Position numbers and translations under genes: made by a program
NCBI GenBank assembly: GCA_017499595.2
Contig: CM039000.1
Location: forward strand, 434,001-498,000
DNA from: Psilocybe cubensis
Lineage: Eukaryota
Length of the DNA: 64,000 nucleotides
Direction: 5' to 3'
The notes under the pieces: generated by a model
Told to the model about the DNA's origin: nothing
What the model saw: the letters and a program-made list of their open reading frames with translations, nothing else
Database searches by the model: none
Shown: positions 13,301 through 46,110 of the stretch, in pieces
Numbering within the stretch: position 1 is the stretch's first letter
Layout of the letters: every line of letters starts with the position of its first letter

Positions 13301-14638
13301 ATACATCCTTCTCCTGGCTCCAATGATCGCCCGTCGTTTACTGCCCTTGTTGGGAGCGTCGACTCTAACGCTGCCAAATACGTTCCGACGACTCGTGTGC
13401 AAACTGGACGTCAAGAGATTATTGAGGATCTAGAGGACATGACCAAAGTACGCATTTGGCATTTGACAGATTGGGTCCTTTTGGCTCAGCGAATATTCTA
13501 GGAAATTCTTCAGCTCTTCATTAGCTACCAACGAGGTGTTGAGAAGAAGTCAGGAAATCTTAAGAGGCTCATCTTCTATCGAGGTATGTTCGCCAAATGC
13601 TGCAGGGCCGTGTTTTCATGTCTGTGCCTCGTAATAGATGGTGTTTCCGAAGGACAATTTAAGCATGTGTTAGAAAATGGTATTGTCTTAGTCGTTCATG
13701 TCTTCTCTTCCGTGATCTCATTGCGATGGCTCACAGAACTTCCTATGATTCAACGTGCGTATACGGGCATACTTTCATGCATAAAACCTTAAAATTGCCA
13801 CAGGAGCGTGTGCAGAACTAAAGCTGAACCCGAAAATTACACTCATTGTTGTTGGAAAGCGCCATCATAACCAGTGAGGAGTTTCTTCAAATCTTGATAT
13901 ACCCATGTCCTTATTTGATTTTTTAGACTTTTCCCAACAGGACCTACAGAGGATAGGAGCGGAAATTGTCCAGCCGGCTCCGTGATCGATCGCGAAATCA
14001 CACACCCAACAGATTTTGATTTTATTTTACAAAGCCATGCCGGAATCCTTGGGACTAGTCGCCCTGGCCACTATTCCGTGAGTGCATATTCATTGCATGA
14101 TGGCACACTCATTCATACCTTTCATCAGGTCTTGCATGACGTATGTTTCGTTTAGTTGAATGAAGCATAAAAAACTAATGGGATTCCTTGACCGGCTACT
14201 GCTTCCTTAGGAATATGGATTCAAGTGCGTACCTTGTAAAATAATTTCGCAATGATCTAACTAAGACGCCTTTCAGTGCCGACTCCCTACATGCCCTTTC
14301 ATTTGCGTTATGTCATGTATACGCACGTTCTACGCGCTCTGTTTCCATCCCTGCTCCGGTTTATTGTTTGTCGCGTTCAGTTTGACACTCTGAGCACATT
14401 CTAATTCAGTTTCAGATGCCGATATCGTCTGTTCACGTGCAAAGAACCATTACGATCCACAAGGCTCGCTGCGGTTGTCCGAGACAGGATCTCAGGTCTC
14501 CGGCACAAGTGGAGGTTATTTGGAGTCATTCAAAGCTGGATTCAAACCTCTTCACAGCAACCAGAAGCGGTTAATGTACTTTTGTGTAAGTTTAAACTTG
14601 GTCCTAGATTTAAAGTAATTGCTCATTTATTCCAGTAA
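10399..14638 (+). CDS. Argonaute (QDE-2-like; N-terminal RGG, PAZ, MID, PIWI)
   Basis: RGG-rich N-terminus; [85 protein letters not shown], terminal MYFC; many introns. Confidence 0.95.
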
Positions 14639-14902
14639 TTTTTGTCTCAACCAACAAACTTCCGATTCTGTGCTTTGTGTTTGTAGTAGTCTCATATATC
14701 TTCCTAATGGCAAGTTACTGCGGTCGACTCCATGGTAACCTGTCATTCATTTCTCTCCTTTTGAGCAATATTTGAAACATAGCGTTCAACGTGTGTTATT
14801 GTTATTGTTGTTGTTGTTGTGTTGTGTGTATATCTTCTGTTTTTAAATTGACATGTCACCGTGATGGTCATGTAAAGACAGGGCCATTTCATACCTGTAT
14901 GT

Positions 14903-15204
14903 CATAAGACAGTTTATTTATAACGTACATTACCTAAGATTTAATAATAAGGATATTACGTGAGACATGGTGGATTTACTCCCGCTACCTAATTAGGAGA
15001 TTAGCGTGATGTACGTGTGATTTATCCTGGCAAATCATAGCGTACATGACGTGCCATTTAGCACTAAATGGAGCCGCCGGGTGGCATGCGGGATCCGCGT
15101 GTCGGGCTGCACGGGAAAAACACGGGCCGCAAATGAACCGGACGGGTCCATCTACATCCCGTGTATTGCAAGCAGACGGATCCGTTTTGACCCGTGTTGT
15201 GCTG
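14903..15204 (+). repeat. Left TIR of KDZ-1 (302 bp)
   Basis: Reverse complement of 30194-30495; only two mismatches seen, both CpG/TpG transitions. Confidence 0.95.
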
Positions 15205-15297
15205 TCAGACGGACCCATTTGACCCGTGTCTTCCCAGAGAGGGAGGGTTATTTATGGGGTATTGCAAGTCAATGAGCACAAGGGCTCCAAAAATAAT

Positions 15298-16476
15298 TTA
15301 TTCATCTCTACCGGTATACAAATGCTTTTCCAAACTCGATTCAATCCCTGCCAGCCCAGCGTCAATTTCCTCCAGCACATTATAAGTCAGAATCTCTGAC
15401 TGCAGCTGATGCAGCCGGAGGTTCTTGAACGTTGTAACCTTTCCGTCATAACTACTGTCGCCGACGGAACTGTCAATTATTTGGTCGTATGTTGCCCGTA
15501 GCTGCTGCTCGGTATAATTCTAAAATAGTTGTCAGTATCTAGTGCTTGGTAATATCTGAGTACATACATATAGAAAAGGAGGGTTAAAATACGCCGTCTG
15601 ATCTGTCACATTCTCGAACTCAATGTCAGACTGGGTGGGAGGCGAACCGGGGTAGCCGCCCATGGGATCAAACCTGCCGTAGGTTCGAAAATAAGGGTTT
15701 TGAAGGAGCAGGTGGCATGCTTCAGGGGGTGGAGAATAGCGACCTTGCTTCCTCTCAGAGAAAATAGCTAGACGAGAGTCCATAATGATTTTGTCGACGA
15801 CAGACGTGTATGAAACATGTGCTGCCATCAACGGCGGAGCCGCATCATCCCGGATGACAGGCATAGGTGGAGGATCCAGGGTATCTGGAATAACAGGCAT
15901 AGGGGGAGGATCCAGGGTAGGTGGAATGACAGGCATAGGGGGAGGAGCTAGGTTATTTGGAATGATTGGCATTGGCGGCGGAGCCAAGTCGTTCCGGATG
16001 ACAGGCATTGGCGGCGGAGCCGTGTCGTTCCGGATGACAGGCATTGGCGGCGGAGCCGTGTCGTTCCGGATGACTGGCATTGGCGGCGGAGCCAGGTTAG
16101 CTGGAATGACTGGCATAGGGGGTAGAGCCAGGCTAGCTGGAATTACTGGCATTGGCGGCGGAGCCAGGTCTTTCCGGATGACTGGCATAGGGGGCGGAGC
16201 CAGGTTAGCTGGAATAACAGGCATAGGGGGTGGAGCCAGGTTAGCTGGAATTACTGGCATTGGCGGCGGAGCCAGGTCTTTCCGGATGACTGGCATAGGG
16301 GGCGGAGCCAGGTTAGATGAAATGACTGGCATAGGGGGAGGAGCCAGGTTAGCTGGAATAACAGGCATAGGGGGTGGAGCCAGGTTATCTGGAATGACTG
16401 GCATTGGCGGCGGAGCCAGGTCATCCGTCCTTGCTGTGCGTTTGCTTTCCTTAGAGTTGCTAATATTTGAAGACAT
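15298..16476 (-). CDS. KDZ-1 cargo: proline-rich repeat protein of unknown function
   Basis: ORF 15532-16476 with (LAPPPMPVIxxN/D) repeats; GT-AG intron ~15520-15568 joins a last exon NYTEQQLRATY...GRDE* ending at 15298. True start may lie further upstream. Confidence 0.6.
15825..16425. repeat. 36-bp coding minisatellite, ~16.5 copies
   Basis: Unit like ggcattggcggcggagccaggttagctggaatgact; encodes a 12-aa repeat on the minus strand. Confidence 0.95.
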
Positions 16477-16959
16477 TGCTGATGCTCAGAAATCAATTTA
16501 AATTTACTTGAATTAATGCAATTAGTCTTACATTTTATAGGTTTTACGGGAGGAGGTTCCTTCAGTTTTTCGAGAAGCCTGGTAAGATTGTTGAGACTGG
16601 TGTAGTCAATGGGGGAATTTTTGCTAGAGGTGGGAATAAAGTTGTAGGAGGACATACAGTCCAGAAAGTGCAACTGGGTGGGCTTGTTTATATATCTCAC
16701 GGAATACAATACTATCCGAGGATTCTCCATGACACGGAAATAGATTCACCCGTGTATCGAACTTAGCAACTTTTGCACAAACTGGATCTGGTGAAGAAAT
16801 CACATGACTCAGATTGTACATGTTTGTGTATGGTTTTGTTTTGCGGGACCGCTTTTTTTTAGACTTTTTTTAGACTAACTCCAACCATGATCACCACCCC
16901 ACGTTCTACCGTGCCTCACCCATTAACGCGTCTTCCCCCCCAAAAAAAACGCTTTCCCA

Positions 16960-19537
16960 ATGGCCTCTTCATCTTCCACCACCGCCACCTTCGCCCAACG
17001 CCTTGCTGACTGGGAAAAAACCTTTACAGAGTGCTACCGCAATGGCGAAAGCGCGTTCAACGCTCAGTTGGAGCAGCTCTACAGGGACTTGGTGAGTAAT
17101 CGATATCCCTTGAGCATAAGACTTACTGAACAAAAAAAATTCATCCAAATAGGTTCCACTGTGTCAAGAACACGTCAGGGACGCGGCCAACTTCCGCCTC
17201 GTGGATTATGTCGCAAGCCCTGTCGTGTATTCATACAAGACCAGCCAGGGCAAGGACGGCAAGCAGGTAGCAAGGTTCGAGATTGACTGGGCAAATTTGC
17301 ATCATCAAGTTGCAAATTTCAAGGCATACCAGCAAGGCCAGGAGGCACAGAGGAAGAGGAGGGAGGAGGAAGAGCAAGAGAAGAGGAGGGAGAAGGAGGA
17401 GCAAGAGGAGGAGGAGAGGCAGAGGGTGGAGGAGAGGAGGAAGAGGGAGGTGAGGAGGAAGAGAGAGGAGAAGAAGAAGAGGGAGGAGGAAGAGGAGAGG
17501 CAGAGGGAGGAGGAGGAGGAGAGGCAGAGGGAGGAGGAGAGGAGGAAGAGGGAGGAAGAGAAGCAGAAGGTGGAGGAGAGGAGGAAGGAGGAGAGGAGGA
17601 AGAGGGAGCAGGAGAGGAAGACCAGGGAGCAGGAGAGGCAGAAGGCGGAGGAGAGGAGGAAGAGGGAGCAGGAGCAGGAGCAGGAGACAGACGAGGAGAG
17701 GAACAAGGAGGAGACGGAGAAGAGACGGGCCGAGAAGGGCAAGGGCAAGGCAGTCGAACCCCCGGTGGAAGACGGACCCGTGACAGACGCCCACAAAGAC
17801 AAGGGCAAACGGAAAGCAGCGGACCCCGTGGAGTCCATTCAGTTGGCTCCAGCGGACTACAGGGGCCCACGGACAAGGAAGGGGGAAATCATTCCCCACA
17901 TCACCGCCTCCAACATGCCTGGTCACCCAGCGTACAGGGAGAAGCTGGAAAGATTGGCGAAGTCCAAGCAGGGGAAGTTCAGGAGCAAAGCAATCATAAG
18001 AAGCCACACGGACGAAGACGCGGACGCCGACGTCGACGAGGACGACGAAGGCGATGACCAAGAGGCCCCGCCTACCACCCCCACCCGGAAGATGCTCACC
18101 CGGTCTGCAAAGAAGGACGCCAACCAGGACAATATCCCCCCCATCAGGAAGGCGCGGTCGAGATCCGAGAAAGCGCGCCAGGTGCCGGAGGGGATGGTGG
18201 ATATGGTGGAAAGGTGCACGGGATGCACCAAATTCAAGGTGCCGTGCCATGTCAAGGGAGAGACAGGCACTGAGCCTCTCGTCCCCGTAAAGCACCAATC
18301 TTGCGAGTCTTGCAAGTCTCGCAAGATTCACTGCAGTTTCTACCCGGGACGTTTCTACCCGGGACGCAACACTGTCGCCGGGCAATTCAACCTCTCGACG
18401 CCGCTGGGAAGTTACGGGGAGGTGTTGAAGTTGGAGGAGGGAGAGGATGTTCCGGCGAAGGGGAAGGCCGGGGAAGGGTCGTTCCCTGAGGATGTGGGAG
18501 AGCTGCTTGTGCAGCTGTTTGAGCGACAAGGCCGACTGATGGAACGGATGGATGGCCTTTCCGCGTCCATGACGGCGATAAACGCACGGATTGCAACGTT
18601 TGCCGAGACAAACTTGGCGGTGGAGAAGAGGATGAAGACCGTCGAGGACAGCTTCCAAGAGCTGAAGGCCGAGTGGACCACGGCAAAAGAACAAGTGGCA
18701 GGAAACACTTCGCTTTCCGTCACGATGTTCAACAACATCAAGCAGGCGATCCAGGACGTTCAGTACGTGGTCGGGGTTTTGCTGGAGCAGGATGAACAAA
18801 GGAATCCCGCCCCCAAACAGGCAGCAGGACCCTCCAAGACGGAGGTTGAACAAGAATCGGGTCCGTCGCGGACCCGTGAACCCACCTCTGCGCCACAATC
18901 CCCCAGCCCACCACCACCGCCAGCACCCCTCCCTTCCCCACCTCCACCTCCAGCAGCACCCATTCTCCCTTCCCCTCCTCCACCACCGCCAGCACCTGTC
19001 CTCCCTTCCCCACCCCCACCTCCACCCGCACCCGTCCTCCCTGCCGTGTCTGCGCCACCAACAGCGCTATTCTTGCCCGGTTCGACTCCGGAAGCGCCTT
19101 CGCCCCCCCCAGCTGGCCGACCCTCGCTCCCACCGGTACCACCCGTCCTTTCCCTGTCTCCACCACCCCCTCTCCCAGCTCCACGTCCTCGAAGTTCGAC
19201 GTCAAAGGCCGCACCGTTGTCAAAGGGTGCACCATTGTCAAAGGCCGCGCCATCGTCATCGTCAAAGGCCGGCCCATCCTCAAAGGCTAAGCCATTGTCA
19301 AAGGCTAAGCCATCCTCCAAGGCTGGGCCATCCGGGAATGGACACTCATCGGAGTTGTCTGATCCCTCGGACAGCGACGAGGTTGAAATTGTGGAGGAGG
19401 ATGTTGAGATCGTGGCGTCCACGCTGCCCGCGTCGAACATAGCCACAAAGACAAGGGCTGGACGGAAGCGAAAGGCGGAAACGACTCTGGCTGAAGCATC
19501 GCGCTCGCCCAAAAAACCCAAGGCCCAAAAAAAGTAG
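16960..19537 (+). CDS. KDZ-1 cargo: coiled-coil protein with Zn2Cys6-like cluster and Pro-rich tail
   Basis: Exon 16960-17091, intron 17092-17152, long exon in the frame of ORF 17201-19537; E/R/K-rich helix; CTGCTKFKVPC-x18-CESCKSRKIHC six-Cys motif; second coiled coil; basic NLS-like C-terminus. Confidence 0.75.
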
Positions 19538-19802
19538 TGTATTTCAAATCTTTGTAACTTTTTTTGGTCTCCTTTTTTGCCTTGTCTCATAGATTGCATT
19601 GTACAATTTTTAATATTTGGACTGTATATAGTTTTTACTCTCATGTGCTCATCTGTTTTATATCTCTCCCAAAAAGTAGCACTTGATGATTTTTAATGAA
19701 CCCGCTTTCTGTTTTGATTTTGTGTGAAAACATGTTTGAGAAACATCAAGATAAGAATGAAAAGCATCACATTCAATAGGTATTATGAATCTACTTCAGC
19801 AG

Positions 19803-22113
19803 CTAGGCTTTCAAAGTTTTTTTTCTTTGTCTTTTACCTGCTACAACAAGCAGACTTGCTTCCTGAAGTGCTAAGGCATCCGAAGTCACATTCCTGCGGG
19901 CCCGTGTTTCATCCGTATCTGGACTTGTTACTGTCTCCACAAAGGCATCACAAGTCACGTCCCTGCCGGCCCGTGTATTATCCGTGTCTTGGGTTGTTCT
20001 TGTCTGAACTCCACTTTCTTCCACTGTGTCAAGTGGATCTGAGTAGGGCTTTGTTTTTTTCCTAGGTTGAATCCTTCTAGTTGGTTTTGGCTTAACTGGG
20101 GCCGGTACAGAACTCTCTTCATCGGGTCCGTCCATTTCCGCCGTTCCGACATATGGCTTTGTTCTTTTTCTTGGCATAATCTTTCTAGCTGGCTTGGGAG
20201 GCGCCTCCTCAACCTCTGGAGTTGGGCTGGATGATGGATTGACAATTGTTGGGCTGGATCTACTTGGTAGAGAGGGTGGCTCGCTAGATCTTGAAGGTGC
20301 GTCGGTAGGAGTCTCATCCGTCTCTGGCGTGACTTCAAATCTGGCAGTAGTGCGTGGCATCGCGGATGCCGGACTGCCCCGTCCATTATCAAACTCTGAC
20401 AGATTGGATGATTCAGAGTCGCTTGAAGATTGGGTTTGAAGTCGTATAGCTTTTTGCCTCAGGCGACGTTTGGTTATTGCTGCAGGAGGTGGAGGTATCG
20501 GGTGGGCTTCTAGGCCGTCAAACAAGTTGGACGGATAGAGAGGTTCCATAATATCATAGCCATTTCCAAAAACCTTTGAAAATTTAAAGGGGATGTCTCC
20601 TTGGGCTTGACGGTCCCTCCATAGCTTGAGAATTGCAGAGGTTGACTCCAGGCGGAGCCGGCTCGGATCCGTCACGGGGATTGAACTTGGCCAATACTCT
20701 GGATCAATCATTTCTGCAGAACGCCTTTCAAGAGCATCCCAAGGAACACTTGAACCAGGCCTGTCCTTGGCTAAAGCTGTATACATAGTTAGCAAGTTTG
20801 TTGAGGACATAGACAAATTACACACCATAAACCTTGTTCATGTAAATTCTAATAATTGACTTTTGTGCATAAGCGACTTCTCTCCCAGTTGAGCCATAGA
20901 TAGGACTAGGTACTATTGGAAATCCATTGCTGCTAAACTTGAGGGATTTTTCATGAAACGATGCATCTGGCAGTGCTGGATTGGCCACACCCTTCTCTAT
21001 TTCTGAAATGTGGACGAGGTATTGAACAAATGCTCTGTGAAAAGCGGCCAACTCGGATGGAAAGAGTTGCCCAAAGGAAGGAATTCTGACATCGTCGAGT
21101 GCTAGATCGCTTGTCTGGGTCCTTCAATGCCCATCAGTCAACATTAATACGGGCCAAATTATTCCGCCGCGAATGCTTACGGCGGAAACTTTATCCGCCG
21201 TAGGGTGTTTACGGCGGATAAAGTTTCCGCCGTAAGCATTCACGGCGGAACTTGTTCATGCCGTGTTTAACACTTACATTGAGTATTCGATTTTACCCTC
21301 AATATCATAATGCCCCTCAAAGGTAATGGACCTCATACCCATTCTCTGCCACTTAAGTTTCTCCATTTGTCGAAGTATTTTTCTGCCTTGCCTGGCAGCA
21401 GTCCTGCAGATGTCAGATTGACGGCGGAAACAAGTTCCACCGACTCACTTTGCCTTCATTGATTTTGAAACACCTTTCTTATTCCATTCCTCGAGGATCT
21501 CCATGAACCTGTCCCGCTCCTCCTGAGTCAATCTGGCCTCAACCTGCTTACGTCCTTGTTGATAAAACTTCATCCAATCTTTACTTCCACGAGCAGCATT
21601 CCCTGATAGAAGCGCAACCTCGGAGTCAATCTCTGCCGACTTCTCCTCACGGAATACCATCTGAAAGGTTATACGGGAGTTCAATCCTTCCAATTTTACA
21701 CCAATTCGATTTGATGCATGGTTTCTAAACCAATTAAATATTCGCTATTGTGATGGTTTATGTGTGTAACAAAATTTTCAAAGAAACAACGAGCTCACAT
21801 GCTTCTTCACCTTCCATTCTTTGTGTAGTTGCTTATCTTCCTTCCTAGCACGTCTAGAGTATCTGTGATCCCATGTAGCTTGCAGCTCAGGTATGACAGT
21901 GTTCTGTATGTAGTCTGCTTTGGATGACTTTGATGTATCTTTGTAGGGCTGTACATGCTTTTTCAACACGCGCATTTCCTTTGTTGTCCAAATATTTGAT
22001 TCTTCCGGCGGAAAGTCACCCTCCGCCGTCTGTCCGTTTCTGGGTCCGTTGTGGGTTGTGGCATTTGCGGTAGAAGGAAGCGGATCCGCGTCGGGGGATG
22101 CATTGGTGGGCAT
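19803..22113 (-). CDS. KDZ-1 cargo: multi-exon helical protein with possible HMG-box-like segment
   Basis: Exons WTTKEMRVLKKH..., WMKFYQQGRKQVEARLTQEERDRFMEILEEWNKKG, WQRMGMRSITF, GFPIVP, IDPEYWP...LWRDRQ; clearly homologous to 39683-42077. HMG assignment is inference from known KDZ-linked HMG genes. Confidence 0.65.
21162..21250. repeat. Intronic near-perfect hairpin (41-bp arms, 7-nt loop)
   Basis: ttccgccgcgaatgcttacggcggaaactttatccgccgta-gggtgtt-tacggcggataaagtttccgccgtaagcattcacggcggaa; one mismatch; inside intron 21122-21277 (-). Confidence 0.95.
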
Positions 22114-22992
22114 AATTGCAGTGATGTAACAAGTAGCTTATCGATGAGTATCTGTGTGATCTGGTCAAATCTCACGTCATACGGAGATAAAATAAGCTTC
22201 CGATCATACTAAATAAATGATGTGATGTCATATTTTTCCCAATCAGGTAATCCCGCTTCATCGTCGGCCACGATGATCAAAGCATGCTGGTCGCTGTCAC
22301 ATACATTGACCTCATGATTTTGCAATAGTTCCCTCTGCATTCAATCAATAAACATGGAATTTTGTAAACATTTAGCGCTTTATATAAAGATAATTTTACA
22401 AGGTTTTAAATTCTTGTCAGATGGCTGTAAAGATACAGAAACACAAAATGCAAATTCACGTCTTCTCACCCAAAACTTGTGAAACCCAAAACGGCAGTCA
22501 TCTCAGAGACCATGAGAGGTATTCAAATGCATAATTTTTTTCAAAAAATATAATGATCCCAGTGAGCTCATTTTGACACATTTTCTAGTATATTGAGAAT
22601 ATCTCCTTAAATACGAGGATTCACATTCTACAAAAAATGTCATTCGGTAGCTATTAAAAATATCTTTCATATGATATACGCCGGAGGAATGAGGGGCCAG
22701 CCAGTGAAAAGATATTTCAAAAACACTCCAAAGTGTGGTTCTGAAAGGGTCGTTCTGCATCATATTGTACATTTATGATGGGATCACGTCCATTTTGTGC
22801 ATCTCTGGATTAAGTTTTGTTCATAACATTTCACTCACTCATCCAAATATGCTGCAAGATAAGTCATATGAAAGCTATTTTTCTCCTCTTTAAAACGGCA
22901 TAATTGAGGGAAATTTATCTACAGAAATAAACATGTTATACTACATTTAGATCTGCGCTCACAGGCTATCAGACTCTTTGTTTCCAACATCC

Positions 22993-25900
22993 ATGGGCTT
23001 CAAGAAAGTACCTGATAGGGGATCGGATGAGGAGTTTCCCAATGTTCGGGAGGCCTCCTGGTCTAGTGGGGCCAAGAAACGAAAGAGAAGGCGGCCGAGG
23101 ATCCACAAACTTCCTGCAGAATCATCATCAACAAACCTCCCTCAAACAACGACTTACTCTTTCCAAAACCATGAACACAACATTCTGGAAGAAGAAATAC
23201 CTCATTATCCGGGAGATCTAACTGATCAGCAGGTACTTGATAACCTGAGACAGCTAGATGACGACAGAACGGGAGGAAAGGTATGTTTTAACATGTTTTC
23301 AGTAGAATGATCAGGATGACTTTACCTATCCAGTCTCAAAATGATTACCTGAGGGAATGGCTCCCGAAACGAGAGGTGTATCTTGGAACAATGATTGGAG
23401 GAGAAGCCCCGGATCCGGATCTGAATGGACAGTGTCAGCAATGTCAAGGAATGTCTGGAGTGTGGAGATGTTGCCAATGCTTTGGCTCTAGAATTTTGTG
23501 TTCTGAATGCCTGCGAAGAAACCATCAATTTACACCTTTCCACCGCGTTGAGAAGTGGACGGGTCTATATTTCCGTCCGGGAGCTCTGTGGGAAGTGGGT
23601 GTCAAGTTGTATTTGGGTCATAATGGGAAACGTTGTCCTTATCCCACGGATCCGAGCCACCTAGGATGGGACGGCGGAAACAATTCATCCGGGAGTCATG
23701 GGCACGGCGGAAACAATTCGCCCGTCTTTGAAGATGAACACGGATTGGACCTGGATCCGCTTCCTGCGAGCAATGACCAAGAATCCTTTACGGCTCAGCT
23801 TCTGGCGGACCCGGAGGTACCCCATTTGGTTGAGCTGGACGATGGAGACGATGAAGACGATGATCTATTCGAGGAAGTCGATACAACCTATCTGGACCAA
23901 CCTCGTCCAAAGGCAGCAGACAACAATGGAATTCCTTTCAAGGCAATTGTGCACACCTCCGGAGTCCATTATCTGCCCGTGCGAACATGCACATGCCGGT
24001 CCGTCCGCCTTCCGTCTATCGATTTACAGTATCTGGAGATGGGATTATTTGCAGCCAGCTTTGAAAACGTTCAAACTGTGTTCACAGTTGAGGTCCTTGA
24101 GGACTTTCGGATGGACAACCTCGAGTGCAAAATGTCGGCTTATCAGTATTACCAAAAGTTGCGAAGACTGACTTCGCCAGCGTTTCCAAAAAAGGTGCTG
24201 AACCGCTATCGTGAATTGAGAAGGCTTAGTAGAGAATACAGGGACCTTGTCCTGAGACGACAATACGGAGAAGGGCATACAAGAGAAGCGGTGGTCCCTT
24301 ACTATCGTCATTGCCATGATTCATCACCAGAGAGGATGGGTATTAATGTATCTGATCCAATTGACGGCGGATCTGATAGTCCGTCTCAAGAAGTCGGAAT
24401 GTCAACGGACCCGTCTCTGGGACACGGCGGATTAGATGGTCCGCCTGTACCACAAATGACGCGGACCGAGGATCATCCCGAAGTTGAAGATAGGAGAGGG
24501 AAGTTGGCCTTATTCTGCCCCGCCTGTCCACAGCCTGGAATAAACCTACCTGATAACTGGATTGATGATGCTGATAGGCAAGTTTTAGTTATTCTTCAAG
24601 GGTGACTGCAATTAACAGCAAGTAGCAATCTGTACATACGTAGTTATGTTGCAGATGGTAATTTCAAAGCAGATCACCTCAATCAGAAAAACGAGGGAGA
24701 CGATGTTTGGTTGAGCGTTGGAGAAGGATACATGACTGCTCCGGGCCCTTACAAGGAGCACATTAAGGAAGCAATTTCTCTTGCTCCACGTTATAAACGG
24801 GTGCGTTATCTACCATGATTTATCTTTCACGGCGGATGCTTACGCTCCGTGTCAAAATCTTCTACGGCGGATGCTTACTTTCCGTGTCAAAAAATATCAG
24901 GAACAAACATGTCATAACTACCACGCCCAGAAAGCTGAAAACAGAGTCAGCCCGGGTAAGAGAGTACGTGGAATTGGGGCACACGCTTGCGCTAGGCACG
25001 GATGCTTCTGTCCATCCAGCGTTGTCGATTTTGACAAAGGTGAAAAGCAGATGCACATGGATTGGTCTTTGACTCAGGCCAGGGAAACTACCAACACACA
25101 GGGAATCACAAAACATTTGGAAATCTACGATATAAACTGTCAATATTGCGTTAACTTGGCAAGGCGTCTCTCAGAGTCCACAAAAATGCATTGGCCACCT
25201 TCTGTTAAAATGATTTTTGCAATTGGTTTATTTCACGTCCACGGGCACAAGACGGAATGTCTTTACAACTATGCATCCACCTATGTCCCGGGTGTGGGAA
25301 TCATTGACGGAGAAATCCTGGAGCCGTTGTGGTCCGTGTTAAATGACACATCCCGGAGTACACGTTCCGCTACCACTGCCCATCGAGCAGAGGTTTTGGA
25401 CGACCACATGGGGGATTCCAACTGGAAGAAGACCATTAATATGGCTGCAACAATTGCTGCAAAGTTCAAACGGGCACGGGAACAGTCCGGAATCACAGAC
25501 CAATTTTATAGGGGTATCACGGATCAACAAGATTCCGGGCTCATCAACACTTGGGAAGATGAAATTTCAAAAGCAGAAGCGGACCGAGAACAAGGTGTGG
25601 CCAACGCTGTTGGCAAGGTAATGGCAAGCAAAGTGAAAACGGCTGCTGGACGCCAAGAAATTGAATTGCATCTTTCAAATATGGAACTTACATCTAATGG
25701 TGCTACTGGAAAGGCAGCATGGATATCATCCGGCTTAAAACTGGAGCAAGCGCAGTACGATTATTTCAATTGCATCCTACAGAATTTAACATGTTTTTAG
25801 ATTGGAGCTCAGGGACCATGTCAGAAAGCTCGGAAAGCATCCTTCCACCGCGCAGAAACTTGACTTGGTCAATAAACGTCGCTCCATGCGGACCCGCGTT

Positions 25901-26876
25901 GAAGCCTTCTGTCGATCCGCTATGACCTTCATGGGCGAAGATGTCTTGGAGGATATTCAAGGGGACATTGCTCCCATACTTGACTATGAAGTCAGTGACA
26001 ACGACGATCCTGATCTTGGAAATGTCAACATTACCCGCGCGGATCCGGAACGACAGCCGCTTCCGTTTCCCTCCGCCGTCAAACAAGATTTCTTTGACGG
26101 CCTTGACGCGGGAACAAACCTCATTTTAAAAGGGCTTCGCAAACTTGAACTTCAAATAAGACATGGCCACGCAGAGGACTGTCTGGAAGCGGTCCGGTCA
26201 GCCTTGATCCAGCTTTCTTGGCAGTATAAATATCAGGTTCGGACCGCCGACTCCGTCTATATGGGGACTCGTGCTTGGGATGGCGTCAAGCTTTTGAATG
26301 CTTCCTGGAAATTGCACCGGCGACTCTACAACACAAACCGTCAGAAGATGATCTATTTATCTGCTGGCGTGCGAGACGAGGATAATATTCGGAAACAATA
26401 TCCCATTCTGCAAGTCCATGATTGCAAGCATAGTAATGCCGTGTCGGATCCGAACATTCGCGGAGGAAGCTCGGACCGTCTAAGTTGGATTTGGAGATCC
26501 CGTCAGGGCCTGGACAATGATAATCAATTATACGTTAATGAGTGTGAGTACTGCCATTTGTATTTCTAATTTTTTTCTCAAAGGTTTCTTAGTCTTCAGG
26601 CTAAACTGGCTCCGCGCGCGAGCTCAGAGGAATAGATGGCAAGAGGAGCTGGCCTTGACAAAAAAGGAAATGGAATGGACTGTCAGATTTTATGTGTATA
26701 TGGCAAAGACATGGCGTGCACGGCATGATTTTGTTCCTGACAGGTTAGTTGGTCACAGGGCAAATGCTCAAAAGCAGATTGCCATGTGGAATGATCTGGG
26801 GCGGGCCGCGGATAAGGTCTTCCGTCAAATTAACCCGGAGTATCCGTCCGTGTGGAGATTTATAATTACAGATTAA
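22993..26876 (+). CDS. KDZ transposase with CxC2 cysteine cluster, apparently intact (6 exons)
   Basis: CQQC..WRCCQC..CSEC..H.FTPFHRVEKW; CxC2 region VHTSGVHY..CTC; LALFCPACPQPGINLP; ADGNFK; CARHGC; YDINCQY; FHVHGHKTEC; DGEILEPLWS; LDDHM; WLRARAQRNRWQEE. Introns 23281-23333, 24578-24625 (GC-AG), 24801-24900, 25755-25800, 26544-26592 keep the frame. Confidence 0.92.
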
Positions 26877-26920
26877 CCAGTTCTTTGAACATTCTTGTTG
26901 TATCTCATCTTGTTGAATTC

Positions 26921-28545
26921 ATGCACTTACCGCGGCTTTTTAAACCTCCTGTCGAGGACGAACATCATCTCCTTACCTATGATGAGCGACGTGCTCTGGC
27001 CAAAGTTCATGTCCATATTTGTGGTGCACGGATCCGTGCCGGATACCGTTTGTTCATTGCAAACGGAGACTCTGTTTCCTCCGTGCGTCGCCAAAAATGG
27101 ATGTATTTGCTTGACCTAGAGGTGGTAAGACAGTAATTTTGAACTATTATATCTTGCATTGAGAACTGCTCGATAGGCTATACTGCTGAGAGTACTCGGA
27201 TACTGCTATGTCAATGGATTCCAAGTCGATATTCCATTTTTTATATCAGAAATTCTCAATCAGAGCGTACATGCCGTTTTGAACCGAACTCCCCACCATC
27301 GAGCTGTTTTATTTGAATCTCTAAATCAAAGCTGGTCAGCATGGGAAGATGATGAAATTTTAAATCAGACCAAGAGCTGGGGATATTGGTGGAGGGACGG
27401 ATTTGCTGAAGGCGATGAGTGGCAAGTTGCCTTTGTTACCGTTGAATCGCAAGCAAGAGAATTTTGGAACAAGGTATGTTTTTTTATTGCTGTGGATTAT
27501 ATCTGATTTGCGTCCTTCCCACCAGGTGGTTCTGCCTGAATACCAACAAGAGGTACTCCGGCTAAATAATCAGAGGAAAGAAGCTAAGGAGGGCGCAAGT
27601 TCATCCACCTCTGGGCCTCCAAGAAATCAAGAAAACAATCCCAAGGGCAAGGGAAAGGCGGCTGAACGGACATCCGTCCCCACCTCGGGGAAGCACGGAT
27701 CCGCGTTGACGGGAAAGCACGGCTCCGCGTTTTCACCGCCCACGGGGAAACCCAATCCGCCGACCCGTGTTGCAAACACGCGGGATGAAACATCCCCAAT
27801 TGCAATTTCTGACCACAGACCGCCCTACTGTCCCCGCTGCGGTCAGCCTATCCTAACGGGCGTAATGAGGGAGTTGGCTCACCTGCGCCGGAATGTGGCG
27901 GACAAAATGAAGAATGCCCATAAAGCAGTGACTACTTCTTCGGCCGCCTTGGGCAGATATTCTGTATTGGAGAAGATGTGGATTGACTCTAAGGAGCTCC
28001 CGTTCTCTAACGGCAAGGGGCTTTCAGCCAAATACAAATTTCAGCATCCCGTTCACCCTTCTCCTGACAGTTGGGGCGCTATAACGGCTCAAGCCCGGTC
28101 CTTCAAGGTCTCAAAGCTCAAAGTCGCTTCATTTTACATCAACGACATTTTTTATTCTTTTATTGCCGTCAAGGAACTACCTTTTCATCCACTCTGGTAT
28201 CATTCGCCACCCTCCAACACTGCAAATATTCATCTCCCAACAGATACTCTGCCTACGCCCGGTTCCGTCAGCCCTCCGTCAAATGCACACACCAGCAATG
28301 CCTTCCTTTTTAACGCAAGGTCAAGACCTGTTTTCCCGGGAGAAGAGGATGATATTGATAGTACGTCCGATACCACTGAATCCTCTACACCAGCTACGTT
28401 TTTAGAGCATCTCGCACAGGACTTTGAAGAGGAGGCGGATGAGGAGTCTTCCGCCGGTGATACGACGGAGGAGTCAGATGCTTCCGGTAACTCGGAAGAG
28501 CTTAGCGAGGACGTGTCGGAAACACCCTGGGATGAGGAATCTTAG
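26921..28545 (+). CDS. KDZ-1 cargo: conserved unknown protein (WW and CxxC motifs, acidic tail) downstream of the transposase
   Basis: CGARIR..KWM..LDLE / GYCY..G..VDIPFFI / WWRD / CPRC; homologous to 46111-47829 and 58176-59746. Confidence 0.65.
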
Positions 28546-28686
28546 TTGCCCACCTCTCGCACAGGACATCGAAGAGGAGGCGGATGATGCCTTTTCCGCC
28601 GGTAATACGACGGCGGAGTCCGATGATTCCGGTAACCTTGGAAGAGCTCAGCGCGGACGCGTCGGAAACACCCTGGGACAGAGAAT
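28408..28686. repeat. Diverged ~144-bp tandem duplication spanning the stop codon of the CxxC cargo gene
   Basis: ctcgcacaggac...gaagaggaggcggatga...ggaaacaccctggga occurs twice (~28411 and ~28556). Confidence 0.85.
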
Positions 28687-28772
28687 TCTGGTTGTGCTGT
28701 AGCTTTCGTACTGTTTTGGTTTGGAAATATAAAAAAATCTTCCCCAAACCCAACTTCCAAGTCAAAAACTGA

Positions 28773-30052
28773 TCATATTTCAAAATCAAAAGCGTTGGTG
28801 GCCGGTAAATTTGCAAAAAGATCGTACGTAGTAGACCATCCTGCCTCTTGGACTCCCAGCTCTTCAAATACAGTCCTACGCATGTAATAGACTATGACTG
28901 CCCTGTCTCCATCGCACACCGCGCCGTGTTGAAGCAACCTGCCGGTAATTGCAACAAGGGTCATGGGATCATACTTGTACCGAAGTCCAAGGCCCGGAAG
29001 CTCAAGCCGTCCGTGTTCACCCTTCCCAAGCGGCATCAAAAAATCGTACCATGAGTAGCACGACCCATTATCCCGATGGTATGGTGTATCTCGGTTGCTG
29101 ATCACGGTCATGACTCCAAAGGGCGAACTCCAAATTGTGAGAATTTGCTTCAATATTTCAGCCTTATGGACAAGCTCCGGTTCCGCAGCAAGCCGTTGAA
29201 GAAATTTCATTCCCGCCCGGTACTGCTCGGGATGTATAATGCTCAAGATGGCTCCCAGCAAAGCCGAAGATGTCGTCGTGTCTCGTATAAACTCCTGTCC
29301 AATTGGATTACACAAGTCCAAGGAGACCTCAAGCGGGTTGGACGTCTGAGGAAAATATGAGGCAGTATAATAATTAGCATACAAGTTTCTCACCTCATGG
29401 CCTTGCTGAAACCATGCCGGGGAGAAGTTAATATTTCCAGGTTGAACCCAACCTGGCTCATGTCGAAAGTAACTGTCATTGACCCTCCAGCTTGTGGCCA
29501 AAGGTACCGCCTTGTGAATCATTGTTTCAATATCCCGTAATGAATTCCACACACTCTCCTGTTACTCTTTAGAAAGCATAATATATGAATTAATTGGTCT
29601 GTTTCTAAAACTCACCACCCTTGTCTCTGACAAAATACCTGGCAGGTACCACACCAATATGTTGCCTGCACTATCGACCACAGTTCCGGGCAGGGTTTGG
29701 TACTGTAACGCGGAATGCACCGGAGAAAACTTGTCTTTCAGGCGAGCCTCAACGGTAAAATTCTGACCCGTGCAACGTGCACTGAGATGAGTCAAATATT
29801 CTTCTGCATCCCACGTCGTATATTCTGCCATTCACACATTATTTAATCTCAATTTTCAAAGCTTATTGATTGCATACCTTGATTTTCAAATGCCTGCAAA
29901 ATCACCTCCACAGCTAGATTGCACTCAAACATGGTCTCAGCACTGAAGTTTTCCCGGATTTGATTAGGCAGTTCTGCATGCCAAAGACGACTAGCTATTT
30001 GTGCCTTCATGTAGTTTGAGAGGGATTGGGTTAGCTCAAAGGCATAATCCAT
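28773..30052 (-). CDS. TET/JBP-family 2-oxoglutarate/Fe(II) nucleic-acid dioxygenase
   Basis: Four exons; IHPEQY, NRDTPYHRD (HxD), LELPGLGLRYKYDP, LLQHGA (distal His), DRAVIVYYMR (2OG-binding Arg), matching the fungal TET/JBP pattern; no stops seen in exons. Confidence 0.88.
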
Positions 30053-30193
30053 GCTATCAGGGTATGTGGAAAGGAATGTGCTGCCAGTATAATCTATACA
30101 CCTTATTACATATATTAACGGTCATCCGATGTATGATTCTTCAAGGCGGATATTTGTCGGAATACAGAAGCGGGTGGATGAATGGACCCGTCT

Positions 30194-30495
30194 CAGCACA
30201 ACACGGGTCAAAACGGATCCGTCTGCTTGCAATACACGGGATGTAGATGGACCCGTCCGGTTCATTTGCGGCCCGTGTTTTTCCCGTGCAGCCCGACACG
30301 CGGATCCCGCATGCCACCCGGCGGCTCCATTTAGTGCTAAATGGCACGTCATGTACGCTATGATTTGCCAGGATAAATCACACGTACATCACGCTAATCT
30401 CCTAATTAGGTAGCGGGAGTAAATCCACCGTGTCTCACGTAATATCCTTATTATTAAATCTTAGGTAATGTATGTTATAAATAAACTGTCTTATG
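30194..30495 (-). repeat. Right TIR of KDZ-1 (302 bp)
   Basis: Inverted copy of 14903-15204. Confidence 0.95.
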
Positions 30496-31099
30496 TGCCT
30501 GTATATTAATATATTCTTTTCTGGATAAAGATCTGGGGGGAAATGAGAGTGCATTGGTTGTTCCAGGTGGGCTTTTATAGCTTTTTGCTACAGGTCATAT
30601 GGTATAGGTGACATTAATGGGTACAGACGGTAAATCTCTGTCCCCCTGATGTGATCCATTTCGAGTCATAATTCTTTAAGCTTTAGCTTTATCAGTTACG
30701 GATACATGCGTATCCTTCGAACTTTTCTTGTGAGATACTGGTCGATCTGCTTGCTTTATGCGCATCGATATTGAATGGCAACATAGCTCTGATCTACCCT
30801 TAGTCCCTACCCACCCTTAAAGGTATGATCGTTCTCCGTTTCTTTACCATCTATAGTCTCCAGTGCCACTTTTCTCGAATACTATTTCTGTTTGTATCTG
30901 GAGGCTGTTACAGTCTCACTTGTTTAAGTACATCCACGACTTGAACACGACCCGAACACGAGGTGTGAAATGAGGATGAATCTGGTTCAAATCAACCCCG
31001 CAAAGCTCGTCTTGAACTCTCACACTTACAGGTAATCACGACAATTTTTGCAAGCAGCTTGAGGCTCTTCTTCCTTGAACTGCTAGAATATTTCTGGCC

Positions 31100-31989: not shown

Positions 31990-32293
31990 TGTGATGATTC
32001 GTTCAATTACTAACTACTTATTTAGCATAGATACTCGTGACTGACTAGTAGATTAGATCATGGACACTCACGGGCACTCTAGATAGGTGTTGGAATCATT
32101 GTATTGGATTCGGGACTGATTATTTGGGCTGACATATTTGTATTCTGATTCAAGTAACTACGTATTTAGTCCGTTTCGCGATTCGGATAGTATATAGTCT
32201 GTATTTTACTCACGGAATCAACCCAGTGCCAGATTCCTAATTCCACACTCCATTTTGGGCACCTTCTCCTTTTGTATATTTGAGTTTCTGACA
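31990..32293 (+). repeat. Gypsy 5' LTR (~304 bp, TGT...ACA)
   Basis: First 176 bp identical to 51190-51365; 3' end inferred from ...ctgaca followed by a putative PBS. Confidence 0.8.
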
Positions 32294-32329
32294 AGTTTGA
32301 TTCCGTCTAAATCCTCTTTGCGGATCATC

Positions 32330-33337
32330 ATGTCTGAACAATCTACTCCTATCAACCCCGAGGACCCAACTCCCAGTCAGCCACAATATGTTACCGATTT
32401 CACTCGTATGCTCGAGGCCCTCACGACTCAGCAAGTCAACCTCGAGGGAGCTTTTACTCGGTTTCTTAACATGCAAAATCACGCGTTATCAGCACCTCCA
32501 CCAGTTCAAGCGTCTACTCCAAGACCCTCAGGAGGACATGTCAAGATACGCGAACCAATTATGTTTAGTGGCAAAATGGACGAAGTCACGCCATTCATTA
32601 ACAACCTTCGTCGTATCCAGGAGTTTAACTCGCAGGATTTCCCGACCGATCATAAGAAGGTTTTATATGCTAGCATGTACCTTAAGGCCGGGATTCCTTT
32701 GGAGTGGTTTGCTCATCTTGAGAATATCAACTCTCCCTTGCTTCATGATTGGGATGGCTTCATTCGCACGTTTAAGGATAAATTCGCAGATCCTAGACTC
32801 ACGCTTACCGCCGACCAGAAGCTGGATGCCCTTGTTCAAACGAAATCCGCACATGATTATTTAACTCAATTCCTTGAGTTATCTTCTCATCTCGACATGA
32901 CCGAACAGACTAAAATTAATTGATTTATGAAGGGTCTCAAGCCAACCATTAAAGATCACTTAGTCGGAATTGTAGATCGCCCTACTACACTTGCCGATTG
33001 GGAGTATATTGTGATTCAGATTGACTCTAATCTTCATCAAGGCGACATGGAACGTCGTCGCGAAGAAAAGAAGAATCCAATCTCCAAACCAACTCGCATT
33101 ACTCCTCCTACTTCTTCTGCTGTTGCTTCCAATCCGGATGTTGTCCCAATGGACGTCGATGCTGTTTCAACTGCTGCTCCAAAAACGACTGGCAAACTTA
33201 ACCCTCAAGAGCGTCAGCGTCGCATTGACAAGAACCTTTGTCTTTATTGCGGTAGTGCTGACCACAAGGTGAACGCTTGCCCCATTCGTCAAGCCAAATA
33301 CGGCGAGTACCCAAAAGCCCAGCCGGAGAGGAAATAG
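32330..33337 (+). pseudogene. Gypsy gag with in-frame TGA at 32921
   Basis: EPIMFSG, VLYASMYL, FMKGLKP, VVPMDVD, zinc knuckle CLYCGSADHKVNAC. Confidence 0.88.
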
Positions 33338-35087
33338 TTCCTACTTCTTCGGCAACAGATGGAACTGATCTTAGTTCATCCTGTCACGCCCCACCATTCA
33401 TCCGTGCCAAGAGCGGAGAATGGATATCAGTTTCTAGTGCTCCTAGGTTTACGTTTCATCATCATGTCCGGTTAGATCCTATGAATAGATCCCACTTCTT
33501 TATTCCGATAACGATCTCATTTCCTAACCGTCAAGCAATCAAAACCTACGCATTCGTGGACTGTGGCGCGACACTCTCTCATATTTCCGAATCATTCGTT
33601 AAACGACACTCATTACCCAAGACCATCAAACCTAAACCTGTCCCCATCTATACTATCGACGACAGGCCTTTGTCTTCTGGACTTCTCACTCACGACGTCA
33701 TTACGTCACTCAAAGTTCGGACACATTCAGAGGTTATCAAATTAGGCATTGTTTCTATGCCATATCCAGTACTTCTTGGCCTTGATTGGCTTTGTGAGCA
33801 TAATCCTGATATAGATTGGATCCGCGGCAAATTGGCTTTATCTTGTTGCGGCGCCAATCATCATTTTCCTGTTTCGGCCTTTGGCAAAGGCTATAGTCTT
33901 GCAAGTCCATCGGTCACCTCTCATCTTTCTGTATCTTCAGTCGGACTAGGCCTACGTCTATTCCAAAAGAAGCCCATCATTCAATCTTTGCCAGATCTCT
34001 CTCCGGCTCCTACTCCGGTCCGTGAGAAGTTCACACCAGGCATCTTTTCTAATTTTAGAACGATGCCATCAATCATTCGACCTGTCACTCCAACCGGCCC
34101 TAGTCGTGCGGAACTCTTGTCTATTTGGTGCACCCCTCCAGAACCTCAGCTTCCTGTCTATGGTTCCCCAAACAAACCTATCAATATATCCAAACTTTCC
34201 CCTCAACGTTTCAAGAAGTACGCCAAGAGTGCTGCGATTAATTGTGTCTGGTACACAACAAATGCAGAACTTAAAGTACGTATCAACGCATTGACAAGTG
34301 ACGCTGATGCACCAGTAGATATCGCCAAGGATGATCCAATACCCCTTCCTGTGGACGATGTACCTGACCCTGACGAGGTGCTCAGGAAAACCGTACCAGA
34401 AGCATATCATGAATTCCTCGACGTATTCTCACCCGTAGAGGTCCTCAAGATGCCTGAACATCGTCCATTCAACATCAATATCAAAATCGAAGATGGAAAG
34501 GAACCACCTTTTGGACCAATTTATTCATTAACCCCAGACGAGCGAAGAGTACTGGCAGAATATATCAAAGAACAACTCGAGAAAGGTTATATTTGTCGCT
34601 CGTCATCCTCAGCCTCCTCGCCTATCTTATTTGTCAAGAAAAAGACGGGCGAACTTTGTCTCTGTATAGATTATTGTGGGCTCAATGCGATAACCAAGAA
34701 GAACAGGTATCCACTACCTCTTACGAACGATTTAATTGACAGAGTCGCAGGTTGTGATCGTTTCACGGTGATCGACCTCAAAAACGCATTCAATTTAATC
34801 CGAGTTAAAGAAGGAGACGAATGGAAAACGGCCTTCCGAACTCACCTAGGTTTATTTGAGTATACAGTCATGCCTTTTGGTTTAACGAACGCACCCGCCA
34901 CATTTCAGGCGTTTATTCAGGACACGCTAAGAGACATCCTTGATATATTCTGCGTTGTATATATCAATGACATACTAATCTACTCTAAACCCAGACAGGA
35001 TCATGACAAGCTCATACGTCAAGTCCTTGAAAGACTCCGAAATTCCAAACTATTCGCAAATACCAAGAAATGCGAATTCAAGAAAAC
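33277..35087 (+). pseudogene. Gypsy pol 5' part (protease, RT)
   Basis: AFVDCGAT, LLGLDWL, SSPILFVKKK, KNRYPLP, WKTAFRT, VMPFGLTNAPATFQ, YINDILI (decayed YxDD), KKCEF. Confidence 0.92.
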
Positions 35088-35742: not shown

Positions 35743-35850
35743 AGAGTCATTCAAGAATCACTAGTAATACTAGTAGGTTGAAAAAAATTATTGTACAATT
35801 TCAAGGACAATATTCATTCATAACAAAAATGGCTACAGTAAACTATCCCA

Positions 35851-46062: not shown

Positions 46063-46110
46063 TTTGAAATACTTCTCTTTCTTATCTACTTCCATCTATC
46101 TACATCCATC

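Follow-up and report, generated by a model that had tools for sequence, protein, structure and literature searches.

TET-carrying KDZ transposons of the Agaricomycetes were reportedly described by Iyer et al. in 2014. TET genes are carried by many fungal transposons. KDZ-1, the subject here, is an element of this kind in Psilocybe cubensis, located in a 64,000 nt stretch of contig CM039000.1 (assembly GCA_017499595.2, positions 434,001–498,000 of the forward strand); this stretch is called the window and its own numbering is used throughout. KDZ-1 contains five genes, which encode a proline-repeat protein, a Cys-cluster protein (termed CysCC), a conserved protein termed ORF-B, a CxC2-KDZ transposase and an intact TET. 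The element displays inverted CGG dyads with preferred spacers. This element-private dyad code, together with the conserved Cys-cluster protein, provides a concrete and testable answer to the question of how the specificity of a TET could arise. It would carry sequence-specific anti-silencing, hitherto demonstrated in plants, over to fungi and to demethylation by oxidation.

The TET has already been proposed to be an anti-silencing gene of Kyakuja elements, each serving its own family (PMC12730594, section 4.2; this and the other sources below are cited from parts of their text), and AG-type TETs have been speculated to act without target specificity (PMC12730594, Kojima 2025). The TET-carrying Kyakuja elements of Agaricomycetes share with KDZ-1 a CxC2-KDZ transposase, a 7-bp target-site duplication (TSD) and CA..TG at the repeat ends, as well as an AG-type TET near CcTet, multiple copies in a mushroom and the idea that TET acts against the element's own methylation. 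However KDZ-1 has terminal inverted repeats (TIRs) of 302 nt, whereas two Laccaria Kyakuja families are described without TIRs, and two extra bases are found between its TSD and CA/TG, unlike the described Kyakuja (PMC12730594). Term searches within the article text of PMC12730594, with its supplements outside the scope, turn up neither zinc clusters nor dispersed motifs, nor any DNA-binding accessory protein.

The KDZ1-3 elements of Cryptococcus neoformans are also large (6–11 kb) and mobile, and display TIRs, a CxC-KDZ transposase and extra open reading frames that are without recognisable domains. Unlike KDZ-1 they have no TET, and in the description by which they are compared here neither a motif nor a reader is reported (PMC11588098).

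In plants, proteins encoded by transposable elements that bind dense, family-specific clusters of 8–10-bp motifs cause methylation loss (bioRxiv 10.64898/2026.08.24.746577; PMC10398659). The VANDAL elements are of another superfamily and kingdom than KDZ-1 and have no sequence relation to it. VANDAL and its VANC proteins in Arabidopsis were reportedly studied by Hosaka in 2017 and Sasaki in 2022. As in KDZ-1, family-specific motifs are located in fast-changing tandem repeats of the element's own non-coding regions, and as in the candidate system of KDZ-1 the protein concerned is element-encoded and is not the transposase, with sister families that have other motifs (PMC10398659). KDZ-1 is unlike VANDAL in having many exonic motifs, inverted dyads and its own demethylase gene on board. 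Binding and methylation loss have been demonstrated for VANC (PMC10398659) and are putative for KDZ-1.

The TnpA protein of the En/Spm (CACTA) transposons is a second element protein which binds dense clusters of 8–10-bp CpG motifs near the element ends; it gives family-specific hypomethylation and activation, and the motif sets follow element phylogeny (bioRxiv 10.64898/2026.08.24.746577). TnpA differs from what is found in KDZ-1 in its paired tri-helical helix-turn-helix, its need for host demethylases and its terminal motifs (same source). KDZ-1 displays a Cys-cluster candidate, sites over the whole body of the element and a TET on board.

The earlier note on this DNA had taken an anti-silencing system of this type in a fungus to be undescribed. 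This holds only in part. The role of TET is already in PMC12730594, but the literature search found no report of dispersed dyads, of a KDZ zinc-cluster accessory protein or of sequence-specific anti-silencing in fungi; the supplements of PMC12730594, which might list the KDZ-1 family, are outside the scope of this search.

CGG words and inverted dyads in KDZ-1

The 8-mer palindrome CGGATCCG is present in ten copies in the window and all are inside KDZ-1, within positions 15177–30221; the other 48.4 kb have none. In dinucleotide shuffles of the window (n = 100) the count averages 0.72 and never exceeds 3. A second 8-mer, ACGGCGGA or its complement, is found 19 times, i.e. 17 times inside KDZ-1 and twice outside (57207 and 58545), where shuffles give a mean of 1.20 and a maximum of 5. 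The earlier note had listed ten copies of the first word, with none seen outside the element, and at least 16 of the second. All ten are where it had placed them; for the second word it had missed the copy at 20137, and two more are outside the element.

Markov chains trained on KDZ-1 itself (200 simulations per order) were used as controls. Expected counts are 0.26–0.67 for CGGATCCG and 0.28–1.70 for ACGGCGGA at orders 1–3, 1.9 and 5.5 at order 4, and 4.1 and 9.9 at order 5, where the model absorbs the motif itself. A maximal-order Markov expectation was discarded because 7-mers explain 8-mers, and these simulations replaced it. When synonymous codons are shuffled in the long open reading frames (9,627 nt), the observed seven copies of CGGATCCG compare with 0.42 and the seven of ACGGCGGA with 0.56, and none of 1000 shuffles reaches the observed values. 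Both 8-mers stay enriched in this check against Markov and codon-shuffled backgrounds, which the earlier note had called for, and its placement of the motifs in both introns and coding sequence is correct by the exon maps.

The words that are enriched in KDZ-1 relative to the flanks all contain ACGG/CCGT or CGGA/TCCG. Counts against expected values are 167 and 61 for ACGG, 29 and 1.8 for CGGCGGA, 11 and 0.2 for ACACGGG, and 30 and 3.7 for GACGGA. As they encode a repeated proline-rich peptide, those CGGCGGA copies that lie within the 36-nt array (15854–16421) were not counted as independent. Copies of ACGGCGGA are also partly dependent: a single palindromic cluster of 89 nt contains five, short direct repeats account for three pairs, and the independent places number about ten. 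The exact 8-bp CGGATCCG palindrome is nearly without one-off variants (CGGATCC has a count of 21–23, with 20 from palindromes). The conclusion that CGGATCCG and ACGGCGGA are element-specific and selected at the DNA level is supported.

With tandem repeats masked, KDZ-1 has 22 inverted CGG-Nx-CCG dyads at x = 2, and 10, 28, 20, 18 and 12 at x = 11 to 15. About 2.3 are expected per spacing, or 2.4 at x = 2, and at x = 16 none is observed. The 22 CGG-N2-CCG sites include all ten CGGATCCG; the class of x = 11–15 contains the ACGGCGGA pairs. The 88 dyads of this latter class, where about 11.5 are expected in total, merge into 67 loci. Elsewhere in the window the numbers over x = 11–15 are near expectation, i.e. 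six in the host flank, six in the retroelements and nine in the sister element KDZ-2.

The pairing is specific in orientation as well as in spacing. With the positions of the CGG triplets fixed and their orientations shuffled (n = 2000), the 66 inverted pairs at x = 12–14 compare with a mean of 30.6 (sd 4.5, maximum 44, 0/2000) and the 22 pairs at x = 2 with 8.8 (0/2000); there is no inverted-pair excess at x = 4–9 or x = 16–20. In exons (8,799 nt, synonymous-codon shuffle) dyads number 43 against 9.2 and 20 against 2.7 (0/1000 each), and everted pairs are raised only mildly, 14 against 7.7 (19/1000). The flanks of the half-sites are weakly conserved (A at −1 in 51%, A at +1 in 46%), and the signal lies in spacing and orientation. 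There are also composite sites, 12 different ones in 14 pattern matches, which consist of a palindrome with a 2-bp spacer and a third half-site 7–10 bp away.

Could this pattern arise without any reader, i.e. by composition, internal duplication or a context-dependent decay and repair of CpG, e.g. with methylation and TET acting unevenly on CpG contexts? In the three KDZ elements 55–58% of the CpGs are in CGG/CCG context, compared with 33–39% in the host flank and retroelements, and several motif copies are duplicates. However a context bias cannot make pairs that are specific in orientation and spacing, 66 against 30.6 with none at N16, nor can it give an exact 8-bp palindrome tenfold with almost no one-off variants. 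CpG is not depleted in KDZ-1 (47.7 per kb against 43.8 in the host flank), and KDZ-2 shows the context bias without a TET gene. An origin without a reader is therefore very improbable. A hairpin or cruciform reading of the dyads was dropped, since conservation is limited to the CGG ends and the spacers lack self-complementarity. The dyads are probably protein-binding sites under selection, and the view that inverted CGG dyads with preferred spacers are what a dimeric CGG reader would need is supported.

Placement and turnover of the dyads

The inner parts of the two TIRs display 13–17 dyad loci per kb, compared with 2.5–9 per kb elsewhere in KDZ-1. In the left TIR the outer ~175 nt form an AT-rich part in which ACGT-type words recur, and the inner ~125 nt are dense in CGG dyads. 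Binding of short CpG-containing subterminal repeats by transposases is classic, e.g. in maize Ac. The transposase itself may thus be the reader, its CxC2 or another N-terminal part recognizing CGG half-sites, with the TIR clusters serving end recognition or synapsis and the internal copies being enhancers, decoys or leftovers. The high density in both inner TIRs and the Cys-rich CxC2 domain (E 1.1e-21) speak for this, as do KDZ-2 and KDZ-3, where diverged transposases go with other CpG words. Transposases themselves have also been argued to activate cognate copies (bioRxiv 10.64898/2026.08.24.746577). However about 58 of the 67 loci are outside the TIRs, spread over 15 kb and in exons through codon choice, which goes beyond what end recognition requires; the TIRs contain no ACGGCGGA, and the outer TIR has a separate set of repeated words that could serve the transposase. 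Reading by the transposase is rather unlikely. If it were true, the selection of dyads throughout a 15-kb element, including synonymous codon choice, would still be unusual, as would a domain that resembles Zn2Cys6 with its halves swapped.

Fungal Zn2Cys6 sites usually take the form CGG-Nx-CCG, e.g. N11 for Gal4, N10 for Put3 and N6 for Ppr1. The dyads may accordingly be sites for host Zn2Cys6 factors, accumulated so as to borrow a host activator, with none of the element's proteins being a reader. Dyad clusters are found upstream of TET and CysCC; CysCC and gene 1, which are divergent, have two dyad loci in their common promoter of 485 nt. Borrowed sites would be expected in promoters, but gene bodies and introns contain most of the loci, and the promoter between the transposase and ORF-B has just one. 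Also, sister elements of the same genome use other words, which fits private readers, and the host flank is without such dyads. The probability of a host reader is low.

Two introns are filled with motifs. Intron 3 of ORF-B is 156 nt long against 42–54 nt for the other ORF-B introns, and the excess is the ACGGCGGA cluster; this intron and the ~100 nt transposase intron are unusually long, as the remaining introns are 42–58 nt. These regions differ between copies. One run contains a copy without positions 21179–21241, i.e. with a 63-nt gap in the ACGGCGGA cluster. The number of units in the transposase intron also differs, with loose ends of other copies at 24881 and 24894. As in VANC and TnpA systems, the motifs are in tandem repeats that vary between copies: the palindromic cluster and repeats of 33, 35, 60 and 145 nt.

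The long open reading frames contain seven CGGATCCG, of which six lie in the frame that gives x-Asp-Pro on one strand or the other, and all eight internal copies are exonic when mapped onto the exon models of paralogs. At two of the sites Asp-Pro is kept in foreign relatives, and the CGGATCCG word is therefore made by codon choice. The ACGGCGGA pairs are in lineage-specific linker insertions. The dyads are maintained as DNA words; even those in exons are produced by the choice of codons, at positions that are tolerant or read Asp-Pro.

CysCC and other candidate readers

The 838 aa CysCC sequence displays two CX2CX6C triads followed by a long predicted helix. AlphaFold2, applied to a 218-aa piece with a seven-row alignment, gives a mean pLDDT of 63. 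The model has a short helix at each triad, then a disordered linker of ~55 residues, then a 68-residue helix (residues 106–173) with values of 73–87 per 10-residue block. Zn_clus (PF00172) is the sole Pfam family seen in CysCC, and each triad covers profile positions 1–14 only. The best solved match of the domain is the Zn2Cys6 domain of LAC9, which is weak (E 0.039): triad 2 aligns with LAC9 residues 7–23, i.e. the first half, and triad 1 with residues 28–51, the second half. Like proteins of the Gal4/LAC9 type, CysCC has two CX2CX6C triads with basic residues and a dimer-type helix behind them, which in CysCC is predicted. The dyads resemble Gal4/LAC9-type sites in the inverted CGG, the preferred spacer and the clustering of several sites upstream of a gene (TET).

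An exhaustive phmmer search (1.84 billion representatives) finds five relatives of CysCC, four from P. cubensis and one from Flammula alnicola. The Flammula relative has 29% identity and keeps all six Cys, the N-terminal domain and the helix; it matches Zn_clus with 21.7 bits over profile positions 1–15, half of the profile. It and the nearest foreign transposase are on contigs of equal size (135,911). The ESM Atlas shows only Basidiomycota clusters for CysCC (scores 0.81–0.83, below lead level), and metagenome scans with the CysCC piece and the Flammula relative give no matches. The score of a predicted homodimer of the Cys-plus-helix piece with zinc, 0.11, has no weight either way. As for homology to VANC or TnpA, Pfam shows only the weak Zn_clus match for CysCC and no family for ORF-B, with no direct comparison to VANC or TnpA sequences.

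ORF-B is modelled with a mean pLDDT of 38.9 overall. The sole confidently modelled part is residues 41–110, a small tri-helical bundle in the prediction, with 71–80 in six of seven blocks. ORF-B may be the DNA reader, i.e. a TnpA-like accessory protein with a tri-helical domain, while CysCC does something else. Homeodomains are among the fold matches of the bundle (4j19 Z 5.5, 1lfb 5.3, 8pi7 5.2), the largest motif cluster lies in ORF-B's own intron, and ORF-B is conserved in KDZ-2 (27% identity over 102 aa, E 5.8e-8). A further element family of P. cubensis has adjacent locus tags for ORF-B and the transposase (JR316_0013533 and JR316_0013534). However the fold matches are not above those of unrelated helical proteins (up to Z 6.0), a search of Pfam at E up to 1 gives only two chance-level matches, and a lone homeodomain-like module leaves the inverted pairs of CGG half-sites unexplained. 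ORF-B is an improbable reader.

The sister elements bear on the question of where the reader is encoded. The transposases of KDZ-2 and KDZ-3 are 40–45% identical to that of KDZ-1 and there is no nucleotide similarity. KDZ-1 and KDZ-2 have a common gene order, i.e. Cys-cluster protein, ORF-B, transposase. Because KDZ-2 shares this order and both genes, CysCC and ORF-B are backbone genes of the lineage. The earlier note had identified a KDZ transposon with a TET gene and a six-Cys open reading frame, which Pfam and the pattern scan confirm, but its term "cargo" does not suit a Cys protein that is a conserved backbone gene. The Cys domain of KDZ-2 has five Cys and no Zn2Cys6 match in Pfam or PDB.

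KDZ-2 is enriched in words of its own, e.g. GTCGGAC (13 against 0.7 expected), GTCGGAG (16 against 1.4) and GGTCGGA (8 against 0.1), and it has a motif cluster at 41099–41186 between ORF-B exons that match those around the KDZ-1 cluster. ACGG/CCGT has a density of 11.1 per kb in KDZ-1, and CCGA/TCGG of 11.5 in KDZ-2 and 11.7 in KDZ-3; in the host flank and retroelements, where total CpG is similar, the values are 2.6–6.2 and 4.5–9.2 per kb. KDZ-1 thus has family-specific short motifs in its own copies, as do VANC- and TnpA-type systems, and KDZ-2 uses other words. A different motif set with its own Cys-cluster protein in KDZ-2 fits family-specific recognition of the VANDAL/VANC type. Since the sister elements use private words, it is likely that the reader is encoded by the element.

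In the proposed mechanism KDZ-1 would encode a dimeric protein that reads CGG and docks at the dyads. The best candidate is CysCC, with its putative binuclear-cluster-like domain of swapped halves, its flexible linker and its long helix. By binding the clusters located in the inner ends, in front of TET and CysCC and within the long introns, the reader would label the copies of its own element; it would switch on their genes or keep them open, as do plant TnpA and VANC, and the co-encoded TET would then clear these copies of CpG methylation. It is plausible that a self-recognising reader exists. From the placement of the dyads and the plant precedents VANC and TnpA we infer that reader and TET may have a role in activating or de-silencing their own copies. 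CysCC is favoured as the dyad reader over the transposase, ORF-B and host factors, a choice that is tentative and held at somewhat below even confidence.

Several observations weigh against this reading. As to the dyads, some loci are mutual copies (the mirrored TIR and internal duplications), and a by-eye estimate is ~50–55 independent loci. The spacers of 2 and 11–15 are broader than a rigid Gal4-type dimer would allow, with CGGCGG doublets causing part of this breadth, and the promoter of ORF-B and the transposase (22114–22992) is motif-poor. As to the proteins, the transposase has a Cys cluster of its own, and ORF-B has its confident tri-helical stretch with homeodomains among the fold matches. 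As to KDZ-2, motifs and a Cys protein occur there without a TET, and its repeats are direct hexamers and not inverted dyads. The motif system is therefore independent of TET in cis, or older than the TET gene.

The Zn2Cys6-like reader that the earlier note had proposed stands in some respects and not in others. The six Cys, the matches to the halves of LAC9 and the long predicted helix agree with it. However the Zn_clus match is below the Pfam cut-off of 21 (19.1 bits for the domain alone, 11.5 for the whole of CysCC), the halves are swapped relative to the order in LAC9, and AlphaFold2 is weak over the Cys domain (pLDDT 46–73 per block). Canonical Zn2Cys6 clusters have the form CX2CX6C-X5-12-CX2CX6-8C, i.e. 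a spacer of 5–12 residues, whereas the spacer between the triads is 18 residues in CysCC and 17 in the Flammula relative. CysCC is further unlike Gal4 and LAC9 in its ~55-residue linker, in being transposon-encoded and in the two spacer classes of the dyads. Its domain is predicted to be Zn2Cys6-like and does not pass as a member of the family.

The most far-reaching form of the proposal is a private epigenetic escape kit, with a permuted, dimeric Zn2Cys6-like reader, the ~50–67 dyads in promoters, introns and codons as an address label, a TET recruited to those copies alone or turned on there, and label and reader diverged in the sister elements like those of the VANDAL/VANC families in plants. 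This form is unlikely. If true, KDZ-1 would demethylate itself and no other repeat.

Structure of KDZ-1 and neighbouring elements

KDZ-1 is, by its TIRs, domains and empty site, an autonomous and recently mobile Kyakuja-type DNA transposon of P. cubensis (Table 1). DNA contigs of runs X1 and X3 show the empty site with one CCTGTAT copy; they join position 14893 to 30498 with seven letters shared. The sequence skipped at this joint is 15,604 nt, i.e. KDZ-1 and one TSD copy. The insertion is thus polymorphic between strains, and the element is probably active; experiments are therefore feasible in this cultivable mushroom. A 7-bp TSD is the value for Kyakuja elements (PMC12730594, section 3.2.1), as found here. 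The TIRs of KDZ-1 run from CA at 14903 to TG at 30495, with two further bases on each side (GT and TG) before the TSD.

The transposase matches the KDZ domain (PF18758) at E 1.2e-37 with 130 bits (cut-off 26.6) and the CxC2 cluster (PF18803) with 77.5 bits (cut-off 27); the paralog P0013 matches KDZ at E 7.9e-41. Tet_JBP (PF12851) is matched by the TET with 67.7 bits (cut-off 34.9) over profile positions 3–163 of 164. In the iron triad, HRD and the distal His match their counterparts in CcTet (7vpn, E 1.5e-27). The TET is accordingly classed, by sequence comparison, as AG-type with CcTet as best solved relative, and dioxygenase activity is predicted.

The KDZ-1 family is multi-copy, because paralogous proteins with 85–100% identity are on other contigs. 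The summed contig depth over KDZ-1 is ~10–15 times that of the flanks, a figure that does not equal copy number.

The gene 1 protein consists in large part of ~16 tandem proline-rich units of 12 residues, which the 36-nt array encodes, and it matches no Pfam family. In ORF-B residues 41–115 (21448–22113, minus strand) the bundle ends in a conserved Asn-Trp-Phe-x-Asn-His helix that recurs in the ORF-B proteins of KDZ-2 and the paralog. The C-terminal region of the transposase displays short coding duplications at 27686–27731 and 28410–28694 (24-nt and 145-nt units), each with CGG dyads. One 24-nt unit contains CGGATCCG and its twin has diverged from it.

Table 1. Positions in the window of KDZ-1, its genes and motif clusters, and of the sister elements
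Feature	Position	Strand	Basis or remark
KDZ-1, whole element	14901..30497	+	15,597 bp; empty-site joint, TIRs, Pfam domains CxC2, KDZ, Tet_JBP
TSD CCTGTAT, 7 bp	left 14894..14900, right 30498..30504		sequence checked; empty-site contigs
Left TIR	14903..15204	+	302 nt, starts CA
Right TIR	30194..30495	-	302 nt, 99% complementary to left TIR
CGGATCCG sites	15177, 20664, 22081, 23410, 23647, 26040, 26445, 27029, 27696, 30214		window scan
Inner-left dyad cluster, 5 merged CGG-N11-15-CCG loci including CGGATCCG at 15177	15078..15226		4 in left TIR, 13.2 loci per kb
TET-upstream dyad cluster, 5 merged loci	30171..30320		120–270 nt upstream of TET ATG, mostly in right TIR
Palindromic cluster, 5 ACGGCGGA units	21162..21250		in ORF-B intron 3 (21121–21276)
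Transposase intron, ~100 nt	24798..24897	+	mostly two 35-nt units, each with a ACGGCGGA...CCGTGT dyad
Gene 1, proline-rich repeat protein	15533..16476	-	314 codons open from ATG at 16476
Gene 2, CysCC, 838 aa (P0003)	16960..19537	+	100% tblastn match to P0003
CysCC exons	16960–17094; 58-nt intron; 17153–19534 + stop	+	tblastn of P0003
Six-Cys domain, CX2CX6C-X18-CX2CX6C	18215..18334	+	pattern scan
CysCC long predicted helix, coiled-coil candidate	18494..18697	+	~55 residues behind Cys domain; AlphaFold2
Gene 3, ORF-B	19806..22113	-	668-aa conserved protein; 5 exons via paralog P0011
ORF-B exons	22113–21799, 21744–21448, 21405–21277, 21120–20821, 20777–19806	-	ungapped tblastn of P0011, 97–100% per exon
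Gene 4, transposase	22993..28545	+	~10 exons by 1,691-aa model of paralog P0013
Transposase domains	CxC2 ~23943–24176; KDZ ~24645–25422	+	Pfam
Gene 5, TET/JBP dioxygenase	28776..30052	-	exons 30052–29879, ~29825–29612, 29558–28776, read by eye
Tet_JBP domain	~28878–29378	-	Pfam E 9.5e-19
KDZ-2, Kyakuja-type	35136–48679		~50-nt imperfect inverted ends; nested in Gypsy reverse-transcriptase region
Gypsy element hosting KDZ-2	32198–35097 + 48784–51139		split by KDZ-2
KDZ-3	from ~57950		cut by window end (64000)

KDZ-1 is inserted at the 3′ end of a host gene (region 11412–14900) that displays Argonaute linker-1 and PAZ domains at 11412–12113. Spliced contigs of two runs, which are guessed to be RNA, cover this gene and stop shortly ahead of the insertion point, at 14857 and 14897. 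The contigs of these two runs are only on the host genes that flank KDZ-1 and have no bearing on its expression; none of the runs listed as containing KDZ-1 is an RNA run.

The Cys-cluster gene of KDZ-2 has in-frame stops at 37534 and 38356, which are possibly intronic. The right end of KDZ-2 (48630–48679) has a third copy, 84% complementary, at 51413–51462, which is past the Gypsy integrase and 2.7 kb away. Between the Gypsy and the Copia elements, at 51704–52582, is a tandem array whose periods are 73 and 210 nt. The Copia-type polyprotein open reading frame at 53216–57862 (minus strand) has 1,548 codons and is apparently intact, with gag, a protease-region barrel, integrase and RVT_2.

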